From the IMG/VR virus record IMGVR_UViG_3300014204_000141, positions 29,553 through 93,552 of that record: a stretch of 64,000 nt of DNA; one strand, 5' to 3'. Source of the stretch: a virus (taxonomy: Duplodnaviria; Caudoviricetes). Both the position numbers and the translations under genes were made by a program. The notes beneath the pieces are model-generated. The model did not search any database. It worked only from the letters and a program-made list of their open reading frames with translations, and was not told the DNA's origin. This document shows, piece after piece, positions 1,475-23,011 of this stretch; the stretch's first letter is position 1; each line of letters opens with the position of its first letter.

Positions 1475-4400
1475 ATGGGAATAGCAGAACAATATACAGA
1501 TCCTTACGAACGACAAAAAGCAGACCAATATGGAGGCAAACCTCAGTCCGGTGTTGGTTCTGTTGTGGGTCCATTACTTAAAAACGTGGCGGTGTTTTGG
1601 ATAGCACAACAGGCGCTGAAAATTCTACTTCCTGCTGCTGGGAAGGTTTTAGGCGGTATTGGTAGAGAAGTTGGTGCTTTTAAATTAGGCGGAACGCCAA
1701 TAAGTGAAAGATTTGTACCGGCTGCAAATTATATAAAACAACTACGAACAACATTCTCTCCTGAAAATATGACCCGGACGTTTGGAAAGGGTGAGGGTGA
1801 TCAATTATTTAAATGGAAAACTGATGTTGAAAAGAGTCATACGGATTGGGTTAAGAATTGGGATAGACGTCGCGACGAATTAAAATCTTTTAGAGGTTCA
1901 CCGGATTATTTTTTTAAATCTTTAGAACAAAATTCTAAGGCATATTTAAGTTATAGTAGGGATCGCATTTCCAGTTTTTGGACTTCAGGTCATTTATCTC
2001 AACGTCTTGCTGGTAAGTTTTTAACAGCGGGCCCAAAATATATGGAGAATATGGCCGAATTCTATTTCATAGACCAATCTCTTCAATTATTTCATAAACA
2101 ACCCAGGGGCGAAAAGCAACCTTCACTGTTAAACATACCCAAACAATTTCAGAATTATTTTAAATATAGTATGGAAATGTTACCAATTCAATTGTTAATT
2201 GATTCAGTTGGTCCGGTTTGGGGTTTAGCCAGAGAAGGATTGGTAAGTGCGGGTTCGTCTATATTCAACAAATTAAAATTTAGTAAATACGCGCCTAAAA
2301 TAATCAAACCTGTAGATGAATTTGTAGGCAAACTAATAGCAACAGCAGAGGGATTGCATGAAGGTTATGGTTCATATAAAAAATTAATTAAAAAAAGAAG
2401 CGATTATGTTGATAAAGATTTTATACGAAAGAATATAGGAGAAGCTAGATCAGCTTTTCTTAAGAAATACAATGATAAAATACGCGATTTTAAAGATAGA
2501 CGTGAAAACCCTTTTTATGAAATCACCAATTTAATCAAAACCGTATATGGTTCAGAACATATTCAGGGTCTCCCTGTTAGAAGCAAACAAAAACTAAGAG
2601 ATAAAAAATCTGATGTTAGTAAAGAATATATACGGTCAAAAGTTGATATTATTAAAGAGGGTATGCTTTGGCCCTATAAAGACACACATAAAAGTTATTG
2701 GTTGCGCATGTTTTCTGCCAAAAAAGGTATTGCTGATAATGCCGACTTATTGAATAAACTTCAATCAGAAATAGGAGGTCTTAATCTTGGTGATAAATTT
2801 TTATCAGAAAAAAGACAAATACTTTCTGAAGTAAAAAAATTAGCCAAATCTGGTATGCCGGTTTTGGGAAAGAATTTTACCAATATTGGTGGTGATATTG
2901 TCAGCACGCACAATATAAATCCGTTTACTATTGGAAAACGGATATGGAATTATGCTGAAGAACACGGTCCAACTATTTTTGGTGTGAATCCTCTTACAGC
3001 TCTACATGTAGATACATGGCTTGATCCAAAAGCAACGAGTTTTGAGTACTTAAAAGGTGATAAGGATATTATAGGTATTAATGCCTTAAATACAGAACGT
3101 AATAAAGCTTTTACATCTGGTCTTCCAACGACTGGCAATAAAGGATATGGATATAATGTATCGGAAAGCGGAGAACTGATTTTTGGTGAAAGTGGTGGTT
3201 TGAAACTTGGTGGTCAGGTTTTTGTTGGAATTCAACCTAAAAAAGGCCAAATGAGTTATTTGCGCGTATATAAAAATCCTTATTTTAATAATACGGGAAC
3301 AGCGTCAGGTCCACGAAGTCTTCTTAGTGACGTGTTTAAAAATATGATGGGTTTGCTCAGTACCCGTTATTCTAATAATTCTGAAAATTTTATTAGACGC
3401 GTTGAAAGTCTTTCCACTCAAGATGCCATAGAAAGTCTAAGTAAAAGACCTGGTGTTGCTAAAGTTATTAATTTTCTTCACGCTGACAATTTGGTAAAGA
3501 AAATTGGTAGTGATTGGACACCTAAGAATATTATAAATTTTTGGGATTTGCGTGGTGCTATAGGAAACGTGCATCGCGTTGGTGAAATTGCTCAAGGCGT
3601 ATTTCAAAAATTTCATCAACCCAGCACAGATATTCAAGTTTCTCCTTATTTCTTTAGGGATATGATGGGTAGAGGCCGTCGCGGTGGTTTGTCGTTTTCA
3701 GAACAAAAAAGTTTATTAACTACTGCTGATACTATTCTTGCTACGTCCAATAGAGAGTTTAGTGAGATTTTAAAAGATAACTATACTTTGTCTCGTAATT
3801 TGTATGGTAAGGAATTACCGGGAACTCTTGAGGAAATGAATGTTGAACTAAAACGACTTCATGATTTTTCTGCTACAGCCGCAAAAGGTAATTTAATAGC
3901 GCAAGAATACAAAAGGACTGGCCTCGAACATATTTATCAGGGAATTCATACCACACATGATCTCTCACTTTTTTCTTCACCTGCGGGCCGCGCCAATGAA
4001 AAGCTAAGTGGTCGCGAACAACTAATGGAGTTGTTGTTGACTGAAAAATTTTTACAAAATGGGGAAAAAGATTTTGTAAAAACGTTTAATGATTCGGTTA
4101 AAACGCAAGTCAGAACTGGTGTTTTGAGTGAAGATGAAGCTGTTCATGCTCAATTATGGGGTGTGGAGAAAATTTTTAGAAATAAAACAGAGGGATATGG
4201 CGCGATAGGAATTGAGAGTCAAACTAAATTAGAACCCATAACCACGGATGCTATTAGATTTTTGAAGGATTATATTGAACCTATTAGTAAAGCTGGAATT
4301 AAAAATATAAATCCATGGACGCCTGTATTTGATCCTGGCAACATTTCGGGAACATCATTAATTGACACATCACCATCTCATCTATCTCTAACTCCATATG

Positions 4401-7400
4401 TAAATAGCGCTTTAACATTTAACTTCAAAGGAAAAAATGTTAATACGTCAGCAGTGGATACTATATCATCTGCTTTTGCTATGCGGTTTCAGCGGTTGAG
4501 CAGTTTTGTTTTGGGGTTGGATATAACTAAATATAAAACAGGTTTAAATTATTTAGTTGGCGGTGTGTTAAAGAATAGAATGATGCCTGCGGTTGTGGGG
4601 TTGTGGGGGTTGGATAAAATTAACACCTTTGGTTTTGATATGAATCCTCTTCTGTCCGGCTCTAGTCTGGACGAAGGTGTTGATGTATTTGCCGCAGAAA
4701 AAACAATACAAGCCCGTGTGGGGTTAGCTAAAGCATATGACGTCTTGGGAATAACAGAATCAGCTAAATACACAGAAGGTTTATTTCCAGGTCTTATTGA
4801 CAGTCCGTTAATGCGGGGTGTGCGCGGTGCATTGCTGCCATTGATTGGTGGTGCGAAAATTGGTATGTCCGCGGGTGGTCCTGCTGGTGGTTTGTTGGGT
4901 ATTAGCGTAGGGTTGACATTAGCAGGCCTTCAAGGGTTTGGCACGTTCGATTTAACCAAATCTGCGGCTGAATTGAAGGATATTTATAGTGGAAGAGAAG
5001 AGGTGCCGGTTAAAAGCGGAAGATGGTGGCCTATAAGCAGCACGCCATTTTCTGGCACGCGGATAAAATATTTCCGCCCACATGGCTTTGCTCGTTTAAA
5101 AAGTAAATACAGAGAAACACCAGAAACATACGGTTCGCCTTTAGAACAGTTTTTATTTGCGCCCATACCAGTTTTTGGTTTTAATCCCTTGGAGATGATA
5201 TTTGATAGCGGTCATTATGAGAAGAGGAAGATGTACAGTTTTCCATATCCAGCGCGATCCATTCCGTTTGAAGACGTACCTATAGCTGGTACTATTCTGT
5301 CAGCGGCAGTGAGTCCAATATGGGGTGGTGGCAAAGGATATAGAAATGTTGATGTTGAAAATGCTATTCAAGGCTCTTCCGGTGGTAGTGGATTTGGCAT
5401 ATCTCAAGGTGGTGGGGGTTGGGCTGAAACAGCGTCATCTTCATCATTAAAATTTCAACCCGTTTCTGCTAATTCTTATGGTCAGATGTTGGATCAAAGC
5501 ATTTATGGTGTTACGGAGATGATAGGTCTTCATGGTTTTATTGGTCAGACACTATCAGAAAAGTTGTTAGGATTTCAACAACCGTTTGATAGTCAATTAG
5601 TCATGGCCAATTCTGGTGAAATGTTTTCGGCGCGACGACAGTATTGGGATTTGAATTTAGGAGATCCCACGGGATTGGGTGAAATACCAAGACGATTCCT
5701 ACCCAGACAAAGAAATTTAAATCTTTATAATCCCCTGACTAATGCCGTACCGAATTGGATGCCCGATGAGTGGAAAGTGGGTAGTAGCCTTGCAAAAATA
5801 CCAGAAGCGGAATTTTTATTATCGGGTGAAGGATACCAGAGCGCTCACGATGTTTCTATAGACTTTCCCTATTCTGCGGAATTATTGGGTTTGCCACCCT
5901 CAGAAGTCGCAAGGGTTATGACGGGTTTGTATCAAAGAAACGGTTCTAAATTTTCTAAAAATAGTCTGTCTCGCGACAACCTTTCAATTAAAATAATGGC
6001 TAATATGTATGATCCCAGAAACAACATAAGTGGGTCGTCATCGTCAGTAATAAGTTCAGGTCCAGGCAAAATGACTGAAATTATAAAAAATATCGAAGAT
6101 ATGGGCCAATACAGTGGTGTGACTAACACCGACATATCCGAGACCAATTTTTATTTAAGACAGACGGGTTCTCCGGCTGGGCTACTGACTTATATGTATC
6201 AGGGCAAACCCATATCTTCAACACCTGTAAAATATTCACGAGAACGATATGAGTATGATATTGAAGCTGTTCAAAAAGGACGTTCTATAGCAAAAGAAAT
6301 GCTTGATCGAGGCGTTGGTTTTAGTGGTGAGGGTTATTCTTATATTGATAGGTTAGATATTTTGGCCAATACGTCACCATACAGTGAAGAATTTCATCAA
6401 GTTGAGGGTATAGTTAAAAAACAAATAGAACATGGAGCTGATCTTCAAGACCGATTAGATAAGATTCAGAGAAAACGTGCGGCGATTATGAGATCTGGGG
6501 ATACGTACTCATATCGTTTTAACATTGGTAAGATTTTAACACCAGATACAACATATAATAACACTAGCATGAACACTAATATTAAAGCTGCGGCTGATTA
6601 CACGTTTACAGAAAGAATGATGGCGAGCGGCTGGGAAATGTTCGCTCATAGTAGTAATCCTATATCCGCAAAATTCATGAACATTAGATCTCCATTAGAA
6701 GCATATCAAAGAGATATGATTTATGGTAGGCAGATGAAGATGTGGAATCACCCTCTTTCGCATTGGGCTGATGCATATAGTCGGGGTTTTTTAAGTAAAA
6801 CCAATCCTATTTCTGGAGCCGTAGCAGGTGCTACAGCAGGTACCATAGCTGGTGGTGCGGGGTTGGGTACATTTCTTGGCGGTGTTGGGGGTGGAATTTA
6901 CGGAACAGTTCATGGTATATACAGATCAGTAACAAACACAACATATATCCCCGAATCGATAGAGAAAATTAGAAATACCAATGAGTTTTTTGATGTTTTA
7001 AAATATACTAAAAATAAGATGTTATATAATGAGACTCAGAACCCCGAATATGAATTAGAAGCACAAAATACTATGGTGGGACTTACACCTGATGATCTCA
7101 CAGCAAAAGGATTTAGTAATTTTTTTAGAGCTTCTGGTAGTCAGGAACGGCCTTATTTAATGCAGTTTTTACAAGAAAAAGATGAGACTGAACGCGCGCG
7201 GATTCTCAATTATGTTCCTAAAAATGTAGGTGCTATATTAAGAGCAAAGTGGGGAAAGATGGATGGTGTGCAAGTTTATGTTAATAGAAGCGCCGATGTT
7301 ACTCTACCTGACCAAAACTGGCAGGGTTATAACGCAGACGTTAATCTTGAAGATGTTAAACTGAAAGTTGTTGAACGCCAGGGTGCGGACGCGCATGATT

Positions 7401-7636
7401 ATGGTTTGGGTTTTAAAGATCAGCAATTTAGAGTTCAAAATCAACCTTGGTTAAAAAATATAGCCATATCTATGGGGTCTAATGCTGAGACTAATCGGCA
7501 GACTGTATTACAAAGTGATAATACCGATTTAAGACGACAAATAGAGGAATTAGTTAGGTCGATGCGAGCTGATATAAAGTCAGTTTCTGTTACACCGGCG
7601 ATGCGCAATACAGTAACTATTATTAATACGGATTGA
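1475..7636 (+). CDS. Large tape-measure-like virion protein (2053 aa)
   Basis: Size, position after two chaperones, and two Gly-zipper hydrophobic segments (GGAKIGMSAGGPAGGLLGISVG; GAVAGATAGTIAGGAGLGTFLGGVGGG). Confidence 0.5.
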   Translation: MGIAEQYTDPYERQKADQYGGKPQSGVGSVVGPLLKNVAVFWIAQQALKILLPAAGKVLGGIGREVGAFKLGGTPISERFVPAANYIKQLRTTFSPENMTRTFGKGEGDQLFKWKTDVEKSHTDWVKNWDRRRDELKSFRGSPDYFFKSLEQNSKAYLSYSRDRISSFWTSGHLSQRLAGKFLTAGPKYMENMAEFYFIDQSLQLFHKQPRGEKQPSLLNIPKQFQNYFKYSMEMLPIQLLIDSVGPVWGLAREGLVSAGSSIFNKLKFSKYAPKIIKPVDEFVGKLIATAEGLHEGYGSYKKLIKKRSDYVDKDFIRKNIGEARSAFLKKYNDKIRDFKDRRENPFYEITNLIKTVYGSEHIQGLPVRSKQKLRDKKSDVSKEYIRSKVDIIKEGMLWPYKDTHKSYWLRMFSAKKGIADNADLLNKLQSEIGGLNLGDKFLSEKRQILSEVKKLAKSGMPVLGKNFTNIGGDIVSTHNINPFTIGKRIWNYAEEHGPTIFGVNPLTALHVDTWLDPKATSFEYLKGDKDIIGINALNTERNKAFTSGLPTTGNKGYGYNVSESGELIFGESGGLKLGGQVFVGIQPKKGQMSYLRVYKNPYFNNTGTASGPRSLLSDVFKNMMGLLSTRYSNNSENFIRRVESLSTQDAIESLSKRPGVAKVINFLHADNLVKKIGSDWTPKNIINFWDLRGAIGNVHRVGEIAQGVFQKFHQPSTDIQVSPYFFRDMMGRGRRGGLSFSEQKSLLTTADTILATSNREFSEILKDNYTLSRNLYGKELPGTLEEMNVELKRLHDFSATAAKGNLIAQEYKRTGLEHIYQGIHTTHDLSLFSSPAGRANEKLSGREQLMELLLTEKFLQNGEKDFVKTFNDSVKTQVRTGVLSEDEAVHAQLWGVEKIFRNKTEGYGAIGIESQTKLEPITTDAIRFLKDYIEPISKAGIKNINPWTPVFDPGNISGTSLIDTSPSHLSLTPYVNSALTFNFKGKNVNTSAVDTISSAFAMRFQRLSSFVLGLDITKYKTGLNYLVGGVLKNRMMPAVVGLWGLDKINTFGFDMNPLLSGSSLDEGVDVFAAEKTIQARVGLAKAYDVLGITESAKYTEGLFPGLIDSPLMRGVRGALLPLIGGAKIGMSAGGPAGGLLGISVGLTLAGLQGFGTFDLTKSAAELKDIYSGREEVPVKSGRWWPISSTPFSGTRIKYFRPHGFARLKSKYRETPETYGSPLEQFLFAPIPVFGFNPLEMIFDSGHYEKRKMYSFPYPARSIPFEDVPIAGTILSAAVSPIWGGGKGYRNVDVENAIQGSSGGSGFGISQGGGGWAETASSSSLKFQPVSANSYGQMLDQSIYGVTEMIGLHGFIGQTLSEKLLGFQQPFDSQLVMANSGEMFSARRQYWDLNLGDPTGLGEIPRRFLPRQRNLNLYNPLTNAVPNWMPDEWKVGSSLAKIPEAEFLLSGEGYQSAHDVSIDFPYSAELLGLPPSEVARVMTGLYQRNGSKFSKNSLSRDNLSIKIMANMYDPRNNISGSSSSVISSGPGKMTEIIKNIEDMGQYSGVTNTDISETNFYLRQTGSPAGLLTYMYQGKPISSTPVKYSRERYEYDIEAVQKGRSIAKEMLDRGVGFSGEGYSYIDRLDILANTSPYSEEFHQVEGIVKKQIEHGADLQDRLDKIQRKRAAIMRSGDTYSYRFNIGKILTPDTTYNNTSMNTNIKAAADYTFTERMMASGWEMFAHSSNPISAKFMNIRSPLEAYQRDMIYGRQMKMWNHPLSHWADAYSRGFLSKTNPISGAVAGATAGTIAGGAGLGTFLGGVGGGIYGTVHGIYRSVTNTTYIPESIEKIRNTNEFFDVLKYTKNKMLYNETQNPEYELEAQNTMVGLTPDDLTAKGFSNFFRASGSQERPYLMQFLQEKDETERARILNYVPKNVGAILRAKWGKMDGVQVYVNRSADVTLPDQNWQGYNADVNLEDVKLKVVERQGADAHDYGLGFKDQQFRVQNQPWLKNIAISMGSNAETNRQTVLQSDNTDLRRQIEELVRSMRADIKSVSVTPAMRNTVTIINTD

Positions 7637-7645
7637 GGTGATATT

Positions 7646-10600
7646 GTGTTTGGACATAAAGATCGTAGGGAAGAAAAATCAGACGTTGATTTTGCTGTGA
7701 CATGGATGAGTGTATTGCCGGCGTACTATGTTGCGTCACATTGGTTGAGAAAACGTAGTCCTACAAAGCAAACACCTACACTAAAAACGTTTTTTCCCGA
7801 GATTTACCAAAGAGTTGGCGAACGCATAAAAGGCGCATTTGTTCCTAAACGACTTCAGACTGCCATGACTGTTGATGATTGTTTTGATGCGCTGCAACGT
7901 TTTCAGGATGAAGCTAAAGATAAACACCTTATGGCTTTGGCGTCTGATCAAGAAAAAGCTATTAAAACAATTGAAAAATTTATTCAAGTCAGAGAAAAAA
8001 TAGGTGCGATAATTACACCACAAGAAATCAGAGACAGGTTAGCAAAATTACAGGAAACCAATCCCTTCGCATATGATAAGATTTGTGAAATTGCTTCATA
8101 TGATACACTCACACACGGGAAAGTTGAAATACGGGATGTTGTTAGTAAAATGGAAGGCCAAGGGTTAGATGTAATTACTAACAGTCTTTCTTCTATGACT
8201 TCGGATTTGAAGTTTCTTTTAGATTCTCTGCCTATGCGGTCTAAGTTGTATAATGATTATGTTAAGAAAAAAATTGATGATCCGTTACTGACATTTGATC
8301 AGTTTTTAAAAACAAATCCTGATGTTGAAGAAGTTAAAATCTTGAATTCGGAATTAGACAAAATAAAAAAAGATAAAGTGTTTTTTTCTAAACAACCAAT
8401 TACACCACCGAATTTTTTGCAGACGCCAATAAAAGACGCTAATGTTAAGAATAGAGTTCAACTTCGAGATTTTCTTGATGGTATGTTTAAAAATGTTAAT
8501 ACTTTTGTCGATGGTATGTATGGCAAAACAAGCAACTTTGCTTCTAAAATGGGGTTTAAGACGCATATTAAAACGCCTATTAATACAGTCGTCCAAAAAA
8601 TTAATTCTTTTCGCGCCGATACCGGTGGACGTGTTAAAGGAAAATGGCATGTTAAAGGCGATATAATGCTTAAACAAGGAAGTATTAAAACTTTAAGATA
8701 TACTGACGGATTTTCTATAAACTTTTCTATAGAATTTGCGGATAAATCCGGCGTATCTCGCAATATTGACATTGCCATTCCTTTAGACATAGACATGTAT
8801 GGAAGATATGGCGATAAAATGCATCCTGATATTCCCGGTGTTTTGGCGGATAAATGCATTATGATTGAAGAGAATTTAGAACGAATAGTTAATGGTCATA
8901 TATCACCATATGCGGCAGGATTAAAACAGATAACTGACACCACAATTATTGGTTCGATGATAAATAAAGATTTTCAAAAATTAATGGACAGATCCGTAGG
9001 TCAATTTATCGCGGTTTCGACACCAGAACGCCAAATTCGTTTCGCTGCACTTAAAGCCAATACTATGTATAAGACATTTGGCGAGCGTTTGAATCCAGGT
9101 ATAGAAGCTATAGCCAAAATCAACAATTCTACTGTTTTAAAATTTGTTAAGTCTTCACATAGTGGTATAGGTACAAGTATTGTCACTGTTGTGTCGGAGA
9201 AAGGTAAATGGCGAGTTGATAAAGTAGAAAAATACCAAGGCGGCGGCGCAAATATAGACCGGAATATAACTAAAGACACAATTTTTATTACCTCACGCGG
9301 TCAACGCGATATGTTTAAAATTAAAGAAATTTATGGTAAACAAATTGCCGCCGAAGGTAAGAATGTTATACACTTATCAGACATATCTAAAGCCGATCCC
9401 ACATCATCATTACTGAATATTGACAACACCATATCTTCGCCTTTGGATGCATATGTAGGTAAGACATCAAGACTAACTAAGTACATCAAAACACATTATA
9501 AAAAACAATCACAAATCATAGAAGATTTTATTCAAACTGCAAATATGGATATAACAGATTTTAAAATAACTACAATTCCTAAAGATGTGATGTCATTTAT
9601 TCTCTACACACAAGCTGCAGCGCAAGGTGTTTTTTCCGGGGCCAAAACTAAAACTGAAATAGTAGATATATTGGATGGTATAGTTATTAATAATAGATTT
9701 AGTGGTGAATCCGTTCATCTCAGTATTGGTGCAGTTACACCATCGGCTATGGGAAAGGGTGGACGAACATTTGAAGCAGTGCCAAATATTAATGTTTTAT
9801 TACCAAGATCGGGTCAGAAAGCTCATGCGTTGAAAATTAATAACTTTAATCCTTTATTTGGTCATCACGATTTTAATGTTTCTAATATAAAAAAAGGATT
9901 TAAACTTTCAACGCCATATTTAAGAGAATTAAAAGATATTAATGATATGTCAGTCTCGATAAATGTTGTGGCTGGTATTGGTGACACCGAGGCAAGTGCT
10001 ATTATTAATGATAAAATTCGCAATCTTCAAACACAAACACCAGTTTTGGGAACGCTTACAGTAGATAGGTTTTCACTTAATGTTGCTTCCGATATTAATG
10101 GTAATACTGAACTATTAAAAAATAGAATATTTAAACATGGTGATGTTATAGGTTATGATGCTGTGAATCGCCCGATAAAAAACGAATACGGTTTGATTCA
10201 AATAACTGATGCTAGGTCTGGCCCCGGTGGTATGGAATTATCGTTTCATGTCCTATCTTCACCATCTTATGGTCTCATAGTGGACACGGGTCAGAAATTA
10301 TCATTTAAAAGAGGTGAAATAGGGAACGAGTTTGTTGATATGGTGGCGGGAAAGGGTATACCAGCCAATAACCCCATCGCGCAGTCTCTGTCATTTCTTA
10401 ACACGTTGAATTTTCGTGGTGGCGGTGGTTATTTAAAAACCGCTATCGACAAAAAAGCAAATTTGCGGCGCTATATTCAATATGAACAAGCCGGCGGCGA
10501 GTTTGTTTTTAAAGTAAATGACAGGGAATTGCTTAAGACCGAATTAGGCGGAATTTCTCAAAATATGAATTTTGATCGTAAGTCATTTTTTCAGGAAATA

Positions 10601-13600
10601 AGAAATGTATTTACTGAAAATGGTTTGACCATGGGCCGAGCGATGCGTATGGATCAAGGGTATATTAATAATAATGGTGATATTTTGAGTTTGAGAAGCA
10701 TCAAGAATGACATCAGAGAACGAATAAAAATGTTGGTTGATATTTACAGTAAAGACAAAGCCACACCAAGAAAAGAAGGTGTTAATTATTTGGCGCGTTG
10801 GATTGGCGATGTCACGACTCTACCTGATAAATTATCAACTTTAATTCAAAAATTAAATGGTATTGAAAACGGCAGTTACTCCGAACAGAGAAAGGTAATT
10901 GATGAAGTTTTACAATTTTTTGATCCCATTCCATCGTTTTTAGAAAAAACAAACTATGGATGGGGTATAGCTACAAAACAAAAGATGTTAATTCAACCCG
11001 CGACTATGGAAGATACTGTAATAAACAATTGGGGTTATAAACGATTTAGTTTCAACACATTTGAAACACTGCGTTTATATGAAGGTGGTAGTGCTGTAGA
11101 TGAGTACATGCACAATAAACTCTACAAAAACAATGAACAATTATTTGGCCGTATTATCAGGCAAAATAAAATATTCAGTCTTAGTACCGAAATAATGGAA
11201 GTTGAAGCTGCCAAAAACAGAAATATTTTGAATTTGCGGAAAGTCATGCAATCTCAGGACTTAGTTAGATCAAAAATAGACAGGTTGTTGGATGCTATGA
11301 TCAATCCCAAAATCCAAGAAAAATATGATGAGTTGATTAAACGTGGTGCCGTACTTGTAGAAAAACGTGGTCTTGCGCACGTTGCTATCAAACCCCGAGA
11401 TATAGATAAATACAAAGAAGAGGGTTGGACTGTCAAAGAACTGACTATGACAAATATGCCCGATACAGAAAAATTGAAATTAGCGAGAATTATTCCAAAT
11501 GAGTATGCTGAATTTTTTATAAAAAATCCAATATCGGGATGGATTGGGGTTGATAAGAATGTAGATGTTGCCGACATTTCTGGTAAAATGCAGAAACTGC
11601 GTACTCTTTTTATGGAAGGCGGTGATATTATTCCCGTTGAGGGCACTAAAGGACGTTTGGCATTTATTGGAGACGGTTCTACAGCAATATTGAATTTGAT
11701 GAATAAGATTCGGGCAAGTATTGAACCAACGACAAGAGAATGGGTAATCGCGCATGAAAGAATGATGAAATCTGCGGGTGATATTGCGCCAGCATCGCGA
11801 TACATCACCGCACCCGGTATGAGTTTAACTCTTAGACCTGGGGCTGCATATTTAGGCGGAAAGACATTTAACCCATCAACTACTACTATGGCTTTGGAAA
11901 TGTTGGTAAGTAATGAAGGTTTTGCTTCTGCTAAAAACTTAATTAGAGATGAATTTTGGAGTATGAGTCCAGAACAACAAAAAACATTTTTGGATAGTAA
12001 ATACAAGTATGCTATGGATCATTTCAATTTTACCAAAACCGAACAAAATTTATTACCAAATCAACAAAAATTGACAATGCACCCTCTTATAGAATCTATA
12101 GATCGATTAAAACAAAATGAATTTATAAATGACATGCGCATTTTAAAACGCGAACTTAATTCTGGTCACATTGATAGTGCTTTTGACATGTATTTATCTA
12201 ATGTTGAAAAAGGATTTTTGTCAGTGTCAGCTTTGGGAAGTAAATCTCCTCACTCTGAAAAAACAGGCGCTGTTTTTGGTGAGTTGTTTTTTAGAGAAGG
12301 TGTATCTAAAGGAACAGTTGCTATATCTCCATATCTTAGATATGCGTTTAAAAAAGACTTCGATTCTGATGAACTGCAAATAATTTTAGGGCAAGAAATG
12401 GGTTTAAAAGCAACGAAAATAAACGAAATAGGTATGTATCATAAGACACCCTATCTCTTGCTTGCTAATGAATTAGAAACATTTGCTAATCCTGAAGCTA
12501 AAGCAGCGTTGAAAAAAGGTGAAGTTTTTGTTTATAATACAAAAAAACGGACTTTTGAGTTTATGAAGGCCTCAACCTACACCGGAAGCCTTAGTGAATA
12601 TGCCGTAGAAATGCCCGATGCTATGGAAATGGCTAGACGTGCTTTTGGTATTAAAGAAGGCGCACCCAAAGCACATAAAGTATCACGAACTGTTTATGCT
12701 GAGATGGGATTAGAATATGAAAGACTTCGCACCAAACACCCTAAACTCGATGATGCTTTAAGAAGTAGTGAAGATGAGTTAACAAAACAAATTTTATTGG
12801 TGACGGAATTACCACTAAAAGCAAAAAATGCTAAACAGTATTTTGATATGAGTGCTTTAGAACAAATTATTGAAAATATAACCGATGAAAAAACATATAG
12901 AAAATTAGAAAATAATATAGGTAAAGGTCAATTTCCGGGTCTAGAGTCTTGGATAGAACAAAATATAAAAGTGGAAGATCATATGTTGTTAGGTGCATGG
13001 GCTAAAGCTGGTCGTATAATACCTAATAATGGCATGATTTCTCAACTTGAATTATATAGAGGCGCTAAATTTGGTGTAAAAGAAGATAAAAATATTCGTT
13101 ATTTAACTGATTATCTTAAAAAAGAAAAATTTGCGAATTTATCTAAAAATGTATTGCAAGGCAATATACCGATTCAGGACCTACCTTCTGAGTTAGCGCG
13201 AATGTTTCAGGAAGGCGTAGAGAGTATGAAACCGCCTCGAAATAGTATGGGTTTAGCATTTAGAGAGACAATGGGTAAGAACATGGCAGAAGATGCCAGC
13301 AAATACGCCAGGGGTGGGTTGAAGGTTGTAGGGGGGTTGTTGTTAGCATCAATGTTTTTTCCCAATCAGAGCAGGTTTTTGGGTCACATGCCGGGCCGAG
13401 GCGGAGAATATTACGATTGGAGTTTTACTAAAGATGAATCAAAATGGCAACAGCAAATGGAGTCACCGCTGAATGCCGATAATGGATTTTCGCAACCCGA
13501 TACCCATATCACACTTTTTGACCCCATGGAAAGTGAAAGGCAGACGCGTGTATACGCGCGAAAAACAAAATTTTTAAGACCTGTGTATAAAAGTCAGGAT

Positions 13601-13636
13601 CGTATAGGTCATAAGTCTTCAACGTTTAACTTTTAA
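7646..13636 (+). CDS. 1996-aa protein with two-barrel (DPBB) RNA polymerase-like motifs; candidate virion RNAP or RNAP-derived virion protein
   Basis: GAGGTG RBS and GTG start. 'SKSPHSEK...AISPYLRYAFKKDFDSDELQIIL' (DFDSD aa1571-1575, nt 12356-12370) resembles beta' NRAP...HP...NADFDGD. 'TEASAIIND...GQK...VDMVAGKGIPANNPIAQ' resembles beta motifs. CDS is certain; function is inferred. Confidence 0.5.
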   Translation: MFGHKDRREEKSDVDFAVTWMSVLPAYYVASHWLRKRSPTKQTPTLKTFFPEIYQRVGERIKGAFVPKRLQTAMTVDDCFDALQRFQDEAKDKHLMALASDQEKAIKTIEKFIQVREKIGAIITPQEIRDRLAKLQETNPFAYDKICEIASYDTLTHGKVEIRDVVSKMEGQGLDVITNSLSSMTSDLKFLLDSLPMRSKLYNDYVKKKIDDPLLTFDQFLKTNPDVEEVKILNSELDKIKKDKVFFSKQPITPPNFLQTPIKDANVKNRVQLRDFLDGMFKNVNTFVDGMYGKTSNFASKMGFKTHIKTPINTVVQKINSFRADTGGRVKGKWHVKGDIMLKQGSIKTLRYTDGFSINFSIEFADKSGVSRNIDIAIPLDIDMYGRYGDKMHPDIPGVLADKCIMIEENLERIVNGHISPYAAGLKQITDTTIIGSMINKDFQKLMDRSVGQFIAVSTPERQIRFAALKANTMYKTFGERLNPGIEAIAKINNSTVLKFVKSSHSGIGTSIVTVVSEKGKWRVDKVEKYQGGGANIDRNITKDTIFITSRGQRDMFKIKEIYGKQIAAEGKNVIHLSDISKADPTSSLLNIDNTISSPLDAYVGKTSRLTKYIKTHYKKQSQIIEDFIQTANMDITDFKITTIPKDVMSFILYTQAAAQGVFSGAKTKTEIVDILDGIVINNRFSGESVHLSIGAVTPSAMGKGGRTFEAVPNINVLLPRSGQKAHALKINNFNPLFGHHDFNVSNIKKGFKLSTPYLRELKDINDMSVSINVVAGIGDTEASAIINDKIRNLQTQTPVLGTLTVDRFSLNVASDINGNTELLKNRIFKHGDVIGYDAVNRPIKNEYGLIQITDARSGPGGMELSFHVLSSPSYGLIVDTGQKLSFKRGEIGNEFVDMVAGKGIPANNPIAQSLSFLNTLNFRGGGGYLKTAIDKKANLRRYIQYEQAGGEFVFKVNDRELLKTELGGISQNMNFDRKSFFQEIRNVFTENGLTMGRAMRMDQGYINNNGDILSLRSIKNDIRERIKMLVDIYSKDKATPRKEGVNYLARWIGDVTTLPDKLSTLIQKLNGIENGSYSEQRKVIDEVLQFFDPIPSFLEKTNYGWGIATKQKMLIQPATMEDTVINNWGYKRFSFNTFETLRLYEGGSAVDEYMHNKLYKNNEQLFGRIIRQNKIFSLSTEIMEVEAAKNRNILNLRKVMQSQDLVRSKIDRLLDAMINPKIQEKYDELIKRGAVLVEKRGLAHVAIKPRDIDKYKEEGWTVKELTMTNMPDTEKLKLARIIPNEYAEFFIKNPISGWIGVDKNVDVADISGKMQKLRTLFMEGGDIIPVEGTKGRLAFIGDGSTAILNLMNKIRASIEPTTREWVIAHERMMKSAGDIAPASRYITAPGMSLTLRPGAAYLGGKTFNPSTTTMALEMLVSNEGFASAKNLIRDEFWSMSPEQQKTFLDSKYKYAMDHFNFTKTEQNLLPNQQKLTMHPLIESIDRLKQNEFINDMRILKRELNSGHIDSAFDMYLSNVEKGFLSVSALGSKSPHSEKTGAVFGELFFREGVSKGTVAISPYLRYAFKKDFDSDELQIILGQEMGLKATKINEIGMYHKTPYLLLANELETFANPEAKAALKKGEVFVYNTKKRTFEFMKASTYTGSLSEYAVEMPDAMEMARRAFGIKEGAPKAHKVSRTVYAEMGLEYERLRTKHPKLDDALRSSEDELTKQILLVTELPLKAKNAKQYFDMSALEQIIENITDEKTYRKLENNIGKGQFPGLESWIEQNIKVEDHMLLGAWAKAGRIIPNNGMISQLELYRGAKFGVKEDKNIRYLTDYLKKEKFANLSKNVLQGNIPIQDLPSELARMFQEGVESMKPPRNSMGLAFRETMGKNMAEDASKYARGGLKVVGGLLLASMFFPNQSRFLGHMPGRGGEYYDWSFTKDESKWQQQMESPLNADNGFSQPDTHITLFDPMESERQTRVYARKTKFLRPVYKSQDRIGHKSSTFNF

Positions 13637-13663: not shown

Positions 13664-13843
13664 GGATTTAATATAGTTATAAGAGTGTCATATAAAGGTG
13701 ATATTAATAATTTGTCAAAAGCTATTAAACAAATGATTGAATCCAATACTGGTGCGGGCGCACAGTTTTTGGTTTATGATCAGAGAACTAAAATGATTAA
13801 ACAAAAAAATAATACGGAAGAAATATATAGGAAGTTAAAATAA
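13661..13843 (+). CDS. Small basic hypothetical protein (60 aa)
   Basis: Fills the gap between two giant genes; stop overlaps next ATG (TAATG). Confidence 0.65.
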   Translation: MGFNIVIRVSYKGDINNLSKAIKQMIESNTGAGAQFLVYDQRTKMIKQKNNTEEIYRKLK

Positions 13844-16800
13844 TGGTTGCTAAGACAACAGTAGAAAACCCAGGTTTTGCTTTGGCGTCTGCTAATACAC
13901 TAAATACATACGCTGGTTTCATTAGTACCATGGAAGATGTTTATGTTGCTAATGGTATGGTTTCGGCTGTTAAAGGCACAACATTTTCTGTAAAACTCAG
14001 TCATCGCAATGAACCTATTAAAATTACCCTTGATGGGGTTAGTTCTGAGATTGATTTGTCATCTAAATTTGCACAATACATAGGTCAAACTGTAACTGTT
14101 TTAGTTAAAAAAGATGTGTATAAAACAGGTGTTTTATTTTTACCCGAGAGAGAGTGTATTAACGATGATGCAATAACAAAAAATGGGGCTGGACTTATAC
14201 CATCACAGAATTCACTGTTTAAAAAGGCATATTTATCAGCAAAACGGACTGAGGTAAGCACTGGAATTTCCAAATATGAGAAAGATGGATGGGTTGATGA
14301 AAGTGGTAAGTCCAAACCCGGAGCCTGCCAAATAGGGTTTTTGTGGTTATACGTCCCTCCGCAAGACATTAAGTGTATTCACGCTAATGTCAATCAAACC
14401 ATATCCACTATTAGAACACCCGGTAATCCCAAACTAAAAACCGGTCAAGAAGAGATGCGTATTGAAATGTCTCTTATTTTTCCCTCTCTTGATGATATAA
14501 ATAGAAGACTCAGACCCCTAATAGCCCAATTTATACGTTCACCGTTTCTTCCCATTGAGAATGAACATATAAGAGGATTTGCGTATCCCGATGTACAGTG
14601 GTCAATGAAGGGCTCAGGAAACACCAATTTTAATCAAAAAGAAAGAAGTGTAGATATTAACAATCCCGACAGTTTTATCAATGAGACCACAGAATATCAA
14701 AAGAAAATAAATAAAGCTGTTACCACTCAATCTAAAAATACTGAAACTAATATTGATGAAAATAGCAAAGACATGGAATTGTATAGGGAAGCCGTTAAAA
14801 CTCTTACCGAACTCAAAACTGAACTCAATGGCTATTTTAAATCAAAAAAACTCACAAATTCTATTAGTTTGTATGATAGGTTACTTATCATACCACCAAA
14901 ATTAGATGTGTGTGAAATGAGTAACAGTATTTCCGAGTATAAACTTGTAACAACAAATTTTAAAACATTTCTTAAAAATTATGGAAGTAAAACAGCAAAA
15001 GATGTAAAAAACCAAATTTTGGTATTATTAAATTGTATTTCGTCTTCACTTAGTCACTATAATGATATTTTAAAAGGTTTGAACATAAAATCAAAAAACT
15101 TCATAAAAAATATACAAACAAAAGAACAAATTAAAAACAAATATACTAAACATGCTGGTGATATGTACGCGGATAATACACTTGTAGTAGCTTTGCGTGA
15201 CCTGACGTTATCGACAATGCCAGGTTATCCTGAAGCTCTACAGTGCCATTTAGTTCTGACAATTTTTAATTATGATCCATATTCAAGGGATTTTGCATTT
15301 TTAGGGGATTTTGATAGTGTTGTTCGTCAAATTGAATGTATATCTCAGACTCGAAATATGAGGTATCCAGATTTTGAAGATAATCTCATAAAAAATGATA
15401 AACCTGTTTTAGCGCCACTAGATCAACAGGAAATGCAAATAACTCATAATATAAGTGAATGCATGCCTTTTATTGAATATGTTGCGCCATTGCTGACTGG
15501 TAAAGGTACAGACATTACATGTAACCCTAAATTTAATTTAAGAGATAAACCTTCTGCAACTATAAGTGAACGTACAATTCGTTTTGCCGCACCATCAAAT
15601 TATCTCCATTCTATTTCTCAAGCTGAAGCATTTCAGCGATTTGATTTGCGGTATGAAATGACAGAAAATAACATAGAATATCAGGCTTTACTGGATTCAA
15701 TAGTTAGTAGAACCAGTAGTGAACTCTATGCTGAGTTATTGTCACGGCTTCAACAATCATATAGTCTTACACAAGTCGGTATGGATTCATTGTTTGAATT
15801 TGTCAAGATATTTTATAGTTATTGTTCATTTCAATGGTTGAGTACACAAAAAGAAGTAATGCTAGAGGGTTTGTCAAGTAGTGATGTTAAGGTTGATTTT
15901 ATTATAAATCCTTTTTATAAGGGTATGCCAGAGACCTTTACAACTGTTGGTAAACTCTATGCGTGGTTACAAACACATGGTTACGCCGATGTTTTAGAAA
16001 GTGCAAAAACAGCTATTGAGTTACAGACACGATCTAATAGGGGTTTGCAGAACATATATAATTTTTCTATTAGAAATTCTCGCGATTTAGTTATTAACGG
16101 TATCACGGCTTCATATAGTACAAAACTTGCTACGGTTCCGGTTGTTGGATACAGAATACCAACTCTACAGTATATGGGTCGAAATGATTGGTATATTAAT
16201 ATTAACCTTCAGACATCAAATTTTTTCTTTATTCGCGCTTTTAGAAGTTTAATGGAAATTGCGGCCAGGAGCAGAATATTAAGAAACAAAACACAGAAAA
16301 TGTATTTTATCGCCGAATCCAACGCCGCAGAATTTAGTCCCGAACTTTCTGAGAATACTGTAGATCCCTCTAATGGACTTACAGCGTTTTTAGGTATAAG
16401 AAATGTTCTTTTTGATAATTGCACATACGAAACAATTAAAGATAAACCGGGTTGGTGGAATGTAAATATTACTATGGTTCAGGCAGATCTACCACTTCTA
16501 AGTTATGAAAGTCTTTTGCCTATGAATCAGTACGATGCCGGTGTCTTACAAGATATAGATTTGAATTTGAAAAAAATGACGCAGAAGTTTAGACGCAATC
16601 AAGAAGACCCGGCAACGTTTCGATATAAATATTTTTATCCCGCAATAACGTCTTTTGTGAAAGGGTATTTAAAATATGTTTTGGGTGATATCGATAGTGC
16701 CGAATCCTTGATATCGGATTTAGGCGATGGAAATCTTCTTGATAAAGTATTGGCGATGAATAATATGTCTCAGAAACGGTTTACATCATTTTTATATGGT

Positions 16801-19800
16801 GTGTTAAAAACAAAAGGTGTGATTGATAAGAATGTTGTATATAATGAAGGAAAAGATTCTATTACCACACCAGTTGGAACATTTACAAGGAATAAATTAG
16901 GTATATTTGGTAGATCTTCAACAAGACAAGATTTATCTTTTGCGCAAGATGTTATTAGGAGTATCCAACCAGTAACAGGTTTTGCGCCAGTTCCATCAAA
17001 TATTCAAAAAAGTGTAGATATTATATCAAGAATGTCTGGAGATATAAGATTACTTCACACAGGATTAGGTGTAAATGTTGAAAATGCATTTGCTATGATG
17101 TTTTCTAAATGTTTGCGCGACTTATCTGTTAAATACGTATCAATAGCGCCTACGGAGTGTTTAAAATTTTTAAAATCGTGTGGTAGTTCGTGGCGCGAAG
17201 AAAATTTGCGGCCCCAACACATGTTGCCGAGTTCAGTCAATCAAAATCAAGAAGCTATGCAATTATATAGCAATCACCCTGATTTATCTCTACCATATTC
17301 AGCTAATAATTTTTTGACTGTACCAGCAGATTTCTTTTTCCAAAAAAATATAATTCAATACGATTCCGAACAAATAAATGAGAAATTTAAATCTATAGAA
17401 ACAATGATGAATAATATTTGGAAATCTGAATTAATCGAAGGCGCGTGCATGGTTGCTAATCCCGAATATGCTAAACTTATTTCCGATTATCCTCTGACTG
17501 CAACCGGTAGTGATTATGCGAATTGGATTAAATATAAATGGATGCAATTTCCAGATCCTCGTAGTTCAACTGGCGCAAAAACATCTGGGGTAGTTTTAAA
17601 AGATGCTGCGGATAGGATTAAATTATTTAAACATGTTAAAGGTAATGTTTATATTAAAAGTGAACCCAATGTTGATTTTTTAAAAGAAAAAGTTCCGGCT
17701 GTATATAATCTATGGTATAAAAATATTCAGCATCTATCATTTGAAAGAAAAATGGAAATGTGTTCAAATTTAAGTGAATTTGCCAAACGTCAAGCCGTGA
17801 TAATGCAGGCGATGATTGTTGCTGGTGGTTATTTAAATTTGGTAGAGAGTAGAAAAAATCATATGGAAACCAATAGCACTAAAGCTATGGGTTTATCATT
17901 AGATAAATTAACACAAATTACTACGGAAAAATTTAATCAGATTTGGGCTGCTTCATATGAAACCGATAATTCACTTTTGGGTTCGGTAACGCCATGGTCA
18001 TTGGCAGTGATTGATGACGTTAAACACCGTATTAAGGAATCCTATACTAATTATTGTGCGCGAGACAATACCTTGACCATGGAACGTGCTTTTCCCACAT
18101 TTAAACTCTTTTTTATTGAAGAAGATGCACACGAATGGGGCGCATTTGATGACTACTATATGTATAATGCCGTATCCAGTGTTGATGTAATAGATTCATC
18201 TAAATCAGCTGGTGCTGTTGCTAGTATTGTCTTAAGTAACATGTCAGGCAACTTATCTGATCCCTATTCAGTCTATGCAAGAGAAACACAATTTGCTAAG
18301 GATAATGCTGGTACAATTCAATCCGTAGAACAAACACAACAGGAACAAATACTAGCCACACTTTTTTTACGTGAAGGTGTGACGATAATGATTAAAGCTG
18401 GTTATAGTTCTAATGTCGATGATCTTGATACTATATTTATGGGTAAAGTTGTATCTGTATCACCTGGTGAACAGGTTAACATAGTAGCGCATGGTTTTGG
18501 TGCGGAATTACTTGAGGTTGTTAACAAAGGTATAGAACAAAAATTAGGTTGTTCCAGTCCAGCTCGTAGTCAAGGTGATGTTGTATTATGGGCTGGCGGA
18601 ACCCTGACAGGATTAGAACATTTTGGGTTACCTAATGTGTTTGAGAAATTAGGTTTACGCGGTTCTCCACATGGTGATATTTTACTGTCTCCGCAAAAAT
18701 GGAGAAATGCGGATATTTATAAGGATATATTTCATCCTGTTTTTGATTTGTATTTTAAATTTGGTGTATTTGATCCTAGATATGAGAATATTTATCTGCC
18801 TTATACGAAAATGTCTTTAGGGTTTTGGGGTCGTTTTGTTAATGCTCTTGTACCGTATGAAAAAAATTTAACTAAAGTTGCGACGCGTGTAGCCATGGCT
18901 ATTGCTATTGTTGCTTTTTGTATATTAGTACCCGGAGTTGGTGTTGGTGTTATAACTAGCATATACGGATTAAGTTTTGCTGCAGGTTTTACGACAACCA
19001 CTCTCGCATTAACTAGTTTAAATGCATGGGTCTATGGTGTTGCCATTTTAGGTAGTTATTTGGGTATAGGTGCAATAGACGCTTTAGCAGGTGGTAATTA
19101 TGGTGAATTAGGTGCTATAACATATGATTGGCTTATAGAAAAAAATAAAACAATGTTTGATTTACTTCAGGAAATATGTTTGTATTGGGAAGATTATATA
19201 GTTACTGTATTACCATATAACCAAAATCTACCCGGACAAATGCGACAAACAATTTATGTTGGTCCTAGGAATGGTTTGTATAAATACACAGATGTTTTTG
19301 ATTCGAGTACAGATTTTTCAGATTTTATAAAACGTCTGCAACACGGAAAAAGCGCAGATCCCAGACTCGATGATAATGAAACATTACAAGAAGCATATGA
19401 TAAAAAATCTGAATTAGAAAATGATGTGGTTGCGGCTAGAACTGATTTATTAGAAGTAGAAAAGGATACTTCAATATCAAATTATGATGAACAAGTATCA
19501 AAAGCAAGAAAAGATGTTGTAGATAAAGAACGACTATATCAACTAAAAGAACAAAAACTCGCGGGTTATGATTATAAAACCGCTGATGAACAACAATATA
19601 ATATTAATAATGCTTTGGTGATGTTGGCGATAAATAATCCCGGTGATATGTATACGACATCATCATATACAGATGCAAAAGGGAAACCTCAAACTTCTGT
19701 AACAAAACAAGTTGGATATATGCCTGTCGTAAATTATCATTCGCTTACAAGTTTTAATCATATTATTGAAAACAATATCAGAGCAACATCCGAAGAACTG

Positions 19801-21360: not shown

Positions 21361-21819
21361 ATGTATGAAGGCGATTTAGGTGTTGATGAAAGTGTTAATT
21401 TTTTATTAGAAAACGGTGATTTTGTTGTAACAGGTTCTGATAAACAACTTATTATCATGGCATTTCAGACATCAAGAGGGTCTTGGAATGAATATCCAAC
21501 ATTTGGTGTTGGTTTTAATCTTGTTTATGGTGCTTTTGGTCAAGAAATAGGTCAACAGATATCGGATTTAAAAAAGAGATTGAATTTGTTTATGATGGAT
21601 TATGGTATATTGTTTGATTATGAATTTACTATTATTGATAAAGAAACCGCTGATTTCACATTTTCAGTTTTAAATAGTGATGTAGTCGCTGATATGTCAT
21701 TCGCATATAATTTTGAATTGGGTGTGTTTACATTTATAGAATCTATAGTTGATAACACAAATACCGTGGTTTCGCAACCCCTGACAAAAAATAGGTATTT
21801 GAGGAGAAAAAATGGATAA
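21361..21819 (+). CDS. gp25-like baseplate wedge / sheath initiator
   Basis: 'GDL...ENGDFVV...Q...FQTSRGSWNEYPTFGVG' pattern; directly upstream of J-like gene. Confidence 0.65.
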   Translation: MYEGDLGVDESVNFLLENGDFVVTGSDKQLIIMAFQTSRGSWNEYPTFGVGFNLVYGAFGQEIGQQISDLKKRLNLFMMDYGILFDYEFTIIDKETADFTFSVLNSDVVADMSFAYNFELGVFTFIESIVDNTNTVVSQPLTKNRYLRRKNG

Positions 21820-23011
21820 ATCCGATATTTTTGTAAGATTAAGTGATCAAATCAGAACCGATACTAACAATAAACTAAGAAATTTTTCACAGGGATCATT
21901 GGCAAGAGCAAACCTTAAAGCCAATATTGATTTGATTGATGAATATAGTGGTGAAGTCGATACCAAGTTATTTCAATCGCACCTGTCCACAGCAACTGGT
22001 GAAAATTTAGATGAGTTGATAAAATTTTTAGGTATTGATAGTAGAAAACAAGCAACTTTTTCCACAAGTCAACTTGTAATTACAATAGATCCATTGAGTG
22101 GTCAAACAGTTGAAACATTAAAAGATATTATAGAGGAAAAATCAGGAACAAGACCTGATGACATAAAAATTATAGCTGATACCGAATTCACTAATGAAAC
22201 CAACACCATTTTCTTTTCCGCTGTTAGTGATGTTTCATTATTAGATTCAGGGGTTGCCGTTGAAATATTATCACAAAATAATGGCAGTTATGGTAATACC
22301 GGTGCCGGTACCATAACTAAATTTTCTATGATTCCTCCGGAACTGTCTTATATTAGTGAATATTTAATAATTACTAATCCCATAGCCATAGACAATGCCA
22401 GCGATGACGAAAGTGACGACAATCTCAGATACAGAGGATTTAATGCGTTTCAAGCTCAAGGCGGTGGTAATTTAATAGCCATAAGACTTGCGGCGTTGGG
22501 TGTGCCAGGAGTCGCAGATGTAATATTGAAACCTCTAGCTTATGGTTTAAGCACTATAGGTGTTTTTGTTATGTCCCAATCACCTATTGTATCTGAAGGT
22601 TTACTTGGTGCTGTTCGGGAAGCCACATCAAGAGTAGAATCCGGCGGAAACACTGTTGTTGTTTCTTCGCCAGATTATATAGCAATTAAACTTAAATTGT
22701 TTTTAGAGTTTAAATCCGGTGTATCAGACACTGATAAAAATGGTGTTGTTGATATTGTCTTAAAAAATGTAACAGCGTATATCAACAGTCTTCGTGTTGA
22801 AGAAGAATTTTTGCCACAACAAATTACAAATATCGCGTATAATGCAACTAATACGGTTAAAAAAGCGACTATATTAGAAATAGGCAGTGGTGATTATAAC
22901 AAAGATAATGGATTGGTTGATTACTATACCGAATGTATGATATCACGTCTTTTGCCTGGTGTCAACGCTAAGTTTGTTAGTAATAGTAAATTATTAACAG
23001 TTTGTTGGTAA
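21812..23011 (+). CDS. Baseplate J-like wedge protein
   Basis: 'NFSQGSLAR', 'STATGENLDEL', 'DDESDDNLRYR', 'ALGVPGVADV' are hallmark baseplate-J motifs. Confidence 0.85.
   Translation: MDKSDIFVRLSDQIRTDTNNKLRNFSQGSLARANLKANIDLIDEYSGEVDTKLFQSHLSTATGENLDELIKFLGIDSRKQATFSTSQLVITIDPLSGQTVETLKDIIEEKSGTRPDDIKIIADTEFTNETNTIFFSAVSDVSLLDSGVAVEILSQNNGSYGNTGAGTITKFSMIPPELSYISEYLIITNPIAIDNASDDESDDNLRYRGFNAFQAQGGGNLIAIRLAALGVPGVADVILKPLAYGLSTIGVFVMSQSPIVSEGLLGAVREATSRVESGGNTVVVSSPDYIAIKLKLFLEFKSGVSDTDKNGVVDIVLKNVTAYINSLRVEEEFLPQQITNIAYNATNTVKKATILEIGSGDYNKDNGLVDYYTECMISRLLPGVNAKFVSNSKLLTVCW

Follow-up and report, generated by a model that had tools for sequence, protein, structure and literature searches.

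Comparison with described virion-delivered RNA polymerases

RNA polymerases (RNAPs) that are delivered with the virion, and that allow transcription to start without the host enzyme, have so far been described in phages of the N4-like, phiKZ-like (multisubunit enzymes) and crAss-like (gp66) groups and in a single siphovirus (P23-45 gp96). Here we analysed a 64-kb stretch of the IMG/VR virus record IMGVR_UViG_3300014204_000141 (positions 29,553 to 93,552), hereafter the window, which forms the end of a 93.5-kb contig that was estimated by CheckV to hold ~46% of the genome. An earlier note on this DNA had proposed that a giant gene of the tail module, P0001, encodes a virion-delivered, single-chain RNAP with two barrels. 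The slot of the gene, the position of its motif and the barrel of its relatives were found to support this reading, whereas the beta-like alignment and the SGRS-like motif that had been quoted for it did not hold up. Judging from synteny, motif position and the RNAP fold of positional homologues, we consider it rather probable that P0001 is a very divergent virion-delivered two-barrel RNAP, which is active or was so until recently.

7646..13636, + strand: P0001, an orphan giant of 1996 residues encoded in the "middle" position of a conserved giant tail-module triplet (open reading frame (ORF) and translation, homologue searches, synteny)

The earlier note had cited phi14:2 gp66 and SPbeta YonO as precedents; both are more distant analogues, and the closest precedent was found to be P23-45 gp96, a virion RNAP fused to a tape measure. 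Of the 5002 residues of the gp96 tape measure protein, the N-terminal 1100 make up a two-barrel RNAP that has no clamp (PMC10770324). This RNAP, which occurs in virions and transcribes the pre-early genes, came to light only via its DFDGD motif; the protein carries a membrane segment, passage through the tail has been proposed for it, and its structures are available (PDB 8h2m and 8h2n; PMC10770324). Like gp96, P0001 is a giant protein of the tape-measure region of a tail module that was flagged by a DxDxD motif and has no detectable RNAP similarity, and no sequence similarity was found between the two proteins. In contrast to P0001, gp96 is a siphovirus protein with an N-terminal RNAP (DFDGD at residue 779 of 5002), which is followed by tape-measure, membrane and metallopeptidase parts. 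The candidate module of P0001 lies in the C-terminal half (motif at residue 1571 of 1996), and the gene belongs to a myophage with a separate gp145-like giant gene upstream.

The size and motif that had been given for phi14:2 gp66 were correct (2180 residues, DFDID at 1361). P0001 resembles gp66 (PDB 6VR4) in its length of ~2000-2200 residues, in a non-canonical DFDxD motif, in its giant-virion-protein neighbours and in an R/K-x-P spacing of 36, but gp66 is the virion-packaged single chain of a podovirus-like crAss phage. No match to 6VR4 was obtained when P0001 was searched against the PDB by phmmer, and the two proteins showed no significant similarity at the motif. Enzymes of the YonO/QDE-1 type (PF05183) carry both barrels and a DbDGD-type loop on a single polypeptide; these are non-virion enzymes of ~800-1400 residues, compared with the 1996 residues of P0001.

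Genomic context and positional homologues of P0001

P0001 is flanked by two other giant genes, and a baseplate module follows downstream.

1475..7636, + strand: P0002, 2053 residues, the first giant protein, a homologue of the virion protein 0305phi8-36 gp145 (tblastn, BLAST)
13843..20694, + strand: P0003, 2283 residues, the third giant protein, a homologue of 0305phi8-36 gp147, hub/lysin-like (PHROG 20474, E=4.6e-56; tblastn, BLAST)
21812..23011, + strand: baseplate wedge protein (gpJ/gp6-like), which marks the downstream baseplate module (PHROG 6, E=8.5e-34)
7635..7641, + strand: Shine-Dalgarno sequence GAGGTGA, 4 nt ahead of the GTG start of P0001, where it overlaps the preceding gene's stop codon (sequence reading)

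The P0001 ORF is uninterrupted over its whole length and begins with GTG, and the overlap of its Shine-Dalgarno sequence with the preceding stop codon is read as translational coupling with the upstream gene. Two small ORFs in the chaperone position precede P0002 and are separated from P0001 by that one giant gene, and fibre genes follow the baseplate wedge gene. P0001 thus sits between gp145-like and gp147-like genes, downstream of sheath, tube and chaperone genes. The part of the contig upstream of the window contains terminase, portal, major head and tail sheath genes. It also contains the sigma factor that the earlier note had mentioned, which was confirmed as a 248-residue ORF with sigma70 region 2 (PF04542, 51.7 bits; G000:C1:7855-8601).

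Distant homologues of P0002 and P0003 were found in 0305phi8-36 (gp145 and gp147), KLEB27-3, WH1, Edson, Moorella phage MTATph1 and Acinetobacter phage ME3, and every one of these phages has a third giant gene between the gp145-like and gp147-like homologues. The PHROG 20474 match falls on the C-terminal part of P0003. By the homology of its flanking giant genes, the window belongs to a 0305phi8-36-like jumbo myophage. Single-protein queries with P0002 or P0003 found no close relatives. A query alignment of P0002-family sequences over their conserved C-terminal half revealed 80 more IMG/VR loci, giving ~90 related loci overall, and nearly all of these were ordered as P0002-like, middle and P0003-like (hub-like) genes. 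The supergroup spans at least 10 clades without mutual sequence similarity, from phages of Bacillus, Acinetobacter and Moorella to many uncultured ones.

Where they have been tested or annotated, the syntenic middle proteins are virion components: 0305phi8-36 gp146 (2537 residues, annotated "hypothetical tape measure") was detected in virions by mass spectrometry, KLEB27-3 gp034 (2434 residues) is annotated as a structural protein, and WH1 gp095 (2515 residues) is annotated as a virion structural protein. The middle-slot protein of ME3, gp036, has 1603 residues. In MTATph1 (L006:8513-15869), a transposase insertion (CDS0028) splits the middle gene, leaving an exonuclease-like part in CDS0027 and the conserved C-terminal 60 residues in CDS0031.

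This context also gives room to a purely structural role, in which P0001 would act only inside the tail, as a tape measure, an ejection protein or a channel former, and DFDSD would be present by chance; on the evidence below, we regard this as rather unlikely. Annotation of this slot as tape measure dates back to 2007, and its occupant gp146, the positional equivalent of P0001, has no DxDxD motif. The assignment of gp146 rests mainly on a correlation of its length with that of the tail (PMC2147016). Structural and polymerase roles can, however, coexist in one protein, as in P23-45 gp96 (PMC10770324).

Predicted fold of the KLEB27-3 gp034-like clade

The polymerase fold was most evident in the clade of KLEB27-3 gp034 (L005:11004-18308), for which 35 full-length homologues were collected. 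The invariant elements of this clade include "NRYPT", followed 38 residues on by "ADYDGD", as well as "ARLGK..VG.IDNTR", "FSQDLISSKKF" and a C-terminal Gly-rich hydrophobic segment; the clade therefore has both an invariant R-x-P and an invariant D-x-D-G-D. Two of its members reach the gathering threshold of the Pfam family RNA_pol_Rpb1_2 (25.5 vs 25.3 bits).

The C-terminal 996 residues were modelled with AlphaFold2 from a 42-sequence alignment, and the model showed a predicted local distance difference test score (pLDDT) of 78.5 and a predicted template modelling score (pTM) of 0.66. When the PDB was searched with this model by Foldseek, E<=0.001 was reached by 311 of a total of at least 500 matches, of which the best 50 were all beta'-type RNAP chains. 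The leading match was the non-virion RNAP (nvRNAP) of AR9 (E=2.3e-6), followed by Taq beta' and the phiKZ nvRNAP. VIA-align, a structural comparison independent of Foldseek, listed only two-barrel RNAPs among its top 14, with Z-scores of 10.2 for AR9 nvRNAP beta', 9.8 for Mycobacterium tuberculosis beta' (473 residues), 9.4 for Pol II Rpb1, 9.2 for QDE-1 (model residues 57-930), 7.4 for RDR2 and 7.2 for P74 gp62. P23-45 gp96 was aligned with a Z-score of 6.8 (model residues 63-855; ranks 18 and 22) and phi14:2 gp66 with a Z-score of 5.5 (rank 48). The single-chain enzymes align from about residue 60 of the model, where the invariant K68 and R76 are located, past the Asp triad to about residue 900; in the predicted model, this span is that expected of a two-barrel module.

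The N-terminus of this clade shows a DEDDh (DnaQ/ExoI-like) exonuclease signature, in which D96, E98, H351 and D356 are invariant and which matches PDB 4rg8 (ExoI) with E=0.0036. We know of no described RNAP that is fused to a DEDDh exonuclease. Unlike the KLEB27-3-like proteins, P0001 has no N-terminal DEDDh exonuclease-like domain.

Profile comparison extended the barrel to further middle proteins. Three clusters of these, designated c2, c3 and c4 (ME3-like), matched the modelled KLEB27-3 module across the catalytic barrel (E=8.6e-7, 3.6e-7 and 2.7e-6, respectively), and the c2 and c4 profiles matched each other across 892 columns (E=2.7e-10). The catalytic region of the KLEB27-3 family hidden Markov model (HMM) was also hit, with E=1.7e-6, by the L024/L026/L027 clade, whose proteins have 2012-2018 residues with D[YF]DGD at 1613-1619 and whose P0002 homologue is the nearest to that of this phage. 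Thus, a beta'-like catalytic barrel is present in at least four middle-protein clades, in one by predicted fold and in three by profile comparison. The RNAP reading of P0001 is supported because the syntenic gene of its relatives encodes a virion protein and, in at least these four clades, a beta'-like barrel.

Position of the DxDxD motif in the middle proteins

P0001 contains a single DxDxD motif, at a relative position of 0.787, and a hydrophobic segment near its C-terminus.

12356..12370, + strand: DFDSD, candidate magnesium-binding Asp triad of a beta'-like double-psi beta-barrel, residues 1571-1575 (motif scan and family position)
13304..13366, + strand: GGLKVVGGLLLASMFF, residues 1887-1907, the most hydrophobic segment C-terminal of DFDSD

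A lone DxDxD proves nothing, because roughly 0.3 of proteins this large should contain one by chance (our own estimate, assuming ~5.5% Asp), an expectation that also speaks for a structural protein with a chance motif; the informative part is the position. We therefore compared 71 middle proteins of at least 1300 residues with 90 other giant ORFs from the same loci. A DxDxD motif at 62-90% of the protein length was found in 65 of the 71 middle proteins, compared with 6 of the 90 controls. The median distance from the motif to the C-terminus was 427.5 residues in 44 non-redundant complete middle proteins (interquartile range (IQR) 404-503), and it is 426 residues in P0001. This IQR window covers ~5% of P0001, so a chance DxDxD would land there ~5% of the time, and both this value and the low number of controls with the motif in the equivalent window argue against a purely structural protein. 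In the family, a median of 129 residues (IQR 117-134) separates the C-terminus from the most hydrophobic segment downstream of the motif; in P0001, this distance is 110 residues. The statement that all three metal-binding Asp residues are kept was borne out in that DFDSD is present at residues 1571-1575, at a family-typical distance from the C-terminus. P0001 accordingly shares with the 0305phi8-36-type middle proteins its slot, size range, distance from DxDxD to the C-terminus and near-C-terminal hydrophobic segment.

At least 14 clusters without mutual BLAST links were distinguished among the middle proteins, and DxDxD occurs in 10 of these. Four clusters, including that of 0305phi8-36 gp146, have no DxDxD, so the middle slot does not require an RNAP module; the three clusters besides gp146 are a further point for the structural alternative. 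Among the six middle proteins without the motif in the expected region, three are truncated or frameshifted, and the real exceptions are 0305phi8-36 gp146/L068, L028 and L038. 0305phi8-36 encodes a separate YonO-like RNAP, gp99 (PMC7824862; PMC2147016), and loss of the tail-borne module (in gp146, and also in L028 and L038) may go with the gain of a free-standing RNAP. A weak exonuclease-like stretch is kept in gp146 (L004:14624-22237) at residues 1416-1815.

Comparison of P0001 with beta' and beta subunits

The strings quoted in the earlier note were all located at the residues given for them: DTEASAIIND at 780, HGDVIG at 831, DTGQKL at 880, VDMVAGKG at 897, PGMSLTLRP at 1390, MALEML at 1415, SKSPHSEK at 1532 and DFDSD at 1571-1575. 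We compared the regions around these strings with the subunits of cellular RNAPs and with the related middle proteins, which highlighted the following segments.

12239..12391, + strand: SKSPHS...DFDSDELQIILGQ, residues 1532-1582, the best local match to E. coli beta' NRAPTLH...DFDGDQMAV (local and anchored alignment)
9971..10267, + strand: residues 776-874, including IGYDAVNRPIK, matched by two middle-protein profiles in hhalign (non-significant, a lead only)
10283..10312, + strand: DTGQK(884)LSFK(888)R, residues 880-889, candidate basic-residue motif (consensus comparison by eye)

The proposed beta'-like stretch was recovered as such: the best local alignment between residues 1380-1600 of P0001 and residues 331-480 of E. 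coli beta' was exactly the pairing of SKSPHS...DFDSDELQI with NRAPTLH...DFDGDQMAV, with a score of 42 compared with 28 +/- 4.6 for shuffled sequences (p=0.013). A motif-anchored alignment gave p=0.006. For true pairs of two-barrel RNAPs, the same anchored test gave 0.002 (KLEB27-3 protein and beta'), 0.006 (gp66 and gp96), 0.14 (gp66 and beta') and 0.50 (gp96 and beta'), and the value for P0001 falls within this range. By these alignments, the beta'-like similarity of P0001 appears modestly above chance. The spacing from [RK]xP to the first Asp is 36 in P0001 (K-S-P), 33 in beta', 36 in gp66, 35 in gp96 and 36-38 in the KLEB27-3-like clade, and [RK]xP at such a spacing was found in just 24 of 47 non-redundant relatives; in P0001, the Pro and the spacing fit, while the Arg is replaced by Lys.

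Language-model features of residues 1380-1700 were nearest, among clusters that bear a Pfam family, to PolD DP2 catalytic (0.78), RdRP (0.76) and Rpb1_2 (0.75), which are catalytic-barrel families of two-barrel polymerases. As the scores lie in the range that the tool describes as often due to chance, these neighbours are a coherent lead and not proof. Both the above-chance beta' alignment and these neighbours, all of them two-barrel polymerases, argue against a solely structural P0001.

The other two alignments of the earlier note did not withstand comparison. The proposed beta-like barrel at residues 780-915 was rejected as chance-level similarity, since residues 770-930 aligned with rpoB residues 791-1130 below the shuffle mean (p=0.98). 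The motif likened to SGRS and MALELF is not conserved across the related middle proteins and was dropped. A second barrel was identified in P0001 neither by the rpoB alignment nor by cluster profiles. In hhalign comparisons, residues 776-874 were matched by c4 (E=0.0033), c2 (E=0.079) and a merged profile (E=0.051), none of which was significant. In these matches, c2 and c4 place their homologous columns "lGyD..G.P.k" onto IGYDAVNRPIK (residues 834-845). About 48 residues after these columns, c2 and c4 have a conserved "K.FG..K", to which K884-L-S-F-K888 is collinear in P0001 by eye. Residues 776-874 may therefore be the start of the polymerase module or of a second barrel. In a separate BLAST comparison (E=0.016), the catalytic region of gp66 was paired with residues 678-905 of P0001, with "TGSDFDIDK" placed over "SGQKAHALK" and away from DFDSD; as a candidate second barrel, this pairing has an element order that conflicts with the other weak leads, and it was not counted as evidence.

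Several residues around the motif depart from the usual pattern. The conserved Arg of NRxP is Lys in P0001, as the earlier note had cautioned, Lys also replaces the Gly or Ala that precedes the triad in most relatives, and Ser takes the place of the usual Gly at the fourth position of the motif. Such departures raise the alternative that P0001 is a catalytically dead descendant of RNAP-bearing middle proteins, in which the fold and the Asp loop were kept for nucleic-acid or metal binding; transcription would then be performed by the host RNAP with the phage sigma factor, or by a non-virion RNAP encoded on the missing half of the genome. We consider this alternative improbable. In addition to the substitutions, it draws on the absence of an SGR-like Arg, the extreme divergence of P0001 from all relatives, the sigma factor encoded on the contig and the fact that only ~46% of the genome is in hand. 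However, all three Asp residues, which are usually the first to be lost in dead enzymes, are kept, and active relatives deviate as well: gp66 has DFDID with Ser before the triad, and gp96 has Val before the triad. The family is likewise variable both before the triad (Y, F, E, R, M or L) and at the fourth motif position (A, K, D, L, F or Y).

Sequence searches with P0001

P0001 behaved as an orphan in all searches. No match was found in Pfam or PHROGs, in Pfam searches of three sub-segments at E up to 10, or in the PDB by phmmer with the whole protein or with residues 1500-1620. A word-indexed search of 5.8 billion proteins with residues 750-1700 returned the self-match alone, and an exhaustive phmmer search of 1.84 billion representatives with residues 750-1650 returned 0 matches. 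Homologues were also absent from GenBank phages (tblastn) and from an IMG/VR pattern scan, and a whole-protein search of the ESM Atlas found none. An AlphaFold2 model of residues 700-1850 built from the single sequence had a pLDDT of 33 and was unusable for fold assignment.

A number of these comparisons weigh against the polymerase reading, as do the substitutions around the motif, the second barrel that was not identified and the motif-less clusters described above. A PF00623 search of the contig gave nothing even at E<=10, and the Pfam search of P0001 gave no PF05183 match. No significant sequence or profile link from P0001 to any RNAP or middle-protein clade was obtained by phmmer, BLAST, hmmsearch or hhalign: hmmsearch found nothing, the alignment of the KLEB27-3-like family (A1) matched P0001 in hhalign with a probability of 0.1% and with no match at DFDSD, and the top cluster-profile match on P0001 (E=0.0033, probability <10%) lay outside the DFDSD region. 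In a profile built from 47 non-redundant motif windows, the context of DFDSD scored 3.4 bits, which did not stand out from shuffled flanks (p=0.2) and was lower than the score of every family member in a leave-one-out comparison. The barrel HMM of the KLEB27-3 clade gave p=0.08 on P0001 against decoys anchored on DFDSD. When the L026-like clade was compared with the C-terminus of P0001 by hhalign, the sole match was the hydrophobic segment (E=0.21, non-significant). The lack of significant polymerase similarity and a motif context that is not family-like by profile are also what a structural protein with a chance motif would show.

Other genes on the contig

Several further genes of the window were noted. 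A tubulin/TubZ-like GTPase is encoded at 54263-55468 (+; PF00091 E=7e-11, TubZ-like_C E=4e-9); it is of the PhuZ/TubZ type, and the phage is not phiKZ-like. A TnpB/Cas12f1-like TNB-domain protein (55710-56795, +; E=4e-22) is located directly upstream of a 651-residue protein (56783-58738, +) with weak, sub-threshold matches to glycosyltransferases (GT1) and to the Hint domain; the latter protein may hold an intein-like insertion. An 836-residue primase-helicase fusion (50943-53453, -) has a zinc ribbon, a DnaG catalytic core, Toprim and DnaB C-terminal domains. At 26008-30007 (+), a 661-residue protein that matches a methyltransferase family (PHROG 2675) overlaps the beginning of a collagen-like tail fibre protein of 680 residues with Gly-X-Y sequence, whose matches to tail-fibre PHROGs are very strong. 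A calcineurin-like phosphoesterase is encoded at 32997-33761, and the window ends in a cluster of glycosyltransferase-like (GT2, GT47/RXYLT1-like) and S-adenosylmethionine-dependent methyltransferase genes (59911-63540).

Proposed role of P0001 and of the middle-protein family

In the proposed mechanism, P0001 would belong, as a hyper-divergent member, to a large superfamily of giant middle proteins, most of which lack annotation. The C-terminal half of these proteins would, in most lineages, hold a single-chain two-barrel RNAP module with the DxDxD loop ~430 residues from the C-terminus, followed by a hydrophobic segment at ~110-130 residues from the end, and DFDSD would be the catalytic loop of P0001. 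By analogy with P23-45 gp96, crAss gp66 and the N4 virion RNAP, P0001 would be built into the virion with the tail-internal proteins. At infection, it would be ejected via the tail and anchored by its C-terminal hydrophobic segment, and it would then carry out transcription of the first phage genes from the incoming DNA, independently of the host polymerase; the phage sigma factor may redirect the host RNAP later.

At the level of the family, we propose that the "tape measure" gene, in most of the 0305phi8-36-like supergroup, encodes a virion-borne single-chain two-barrel RNAP, of which P0001 would be the most divergent member; we judge the case for this broader proposal to be evenly balanced. 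The finding of a two-barrel RNAP module in most middle proteins, with an exonuclease fusion in one clade, appears to be undescribed. The claim is less strong for P0001 individually, which is a probable, extremely divergent member of the family. In full-text literature searches, no description of an RNAP encoded in the middle slot was found, the RNAP survey table of the P23-45 study contains no 0305-like phages (PMC10770324), and a comparative survey of jumbo phages credits 0305phi8-36 with the YonO-like gp99 as its sole RNAP (PMC7824862).

If the proposal is true, a gene long read as a tape measure carries an RNAP, and the annotations of these genomes would be corrected. The family would provide many extremely divergent two-barrel polymerases for studies of the minimal catalytic core, and one would have to ask how an enzyme of 2000 residues moves through, or together with, a contractile tail. 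Tail-delivered RNAPs would then be common in contractile-tailed giant phages and not a curiosity of P23-45 and the crAss-like phages.

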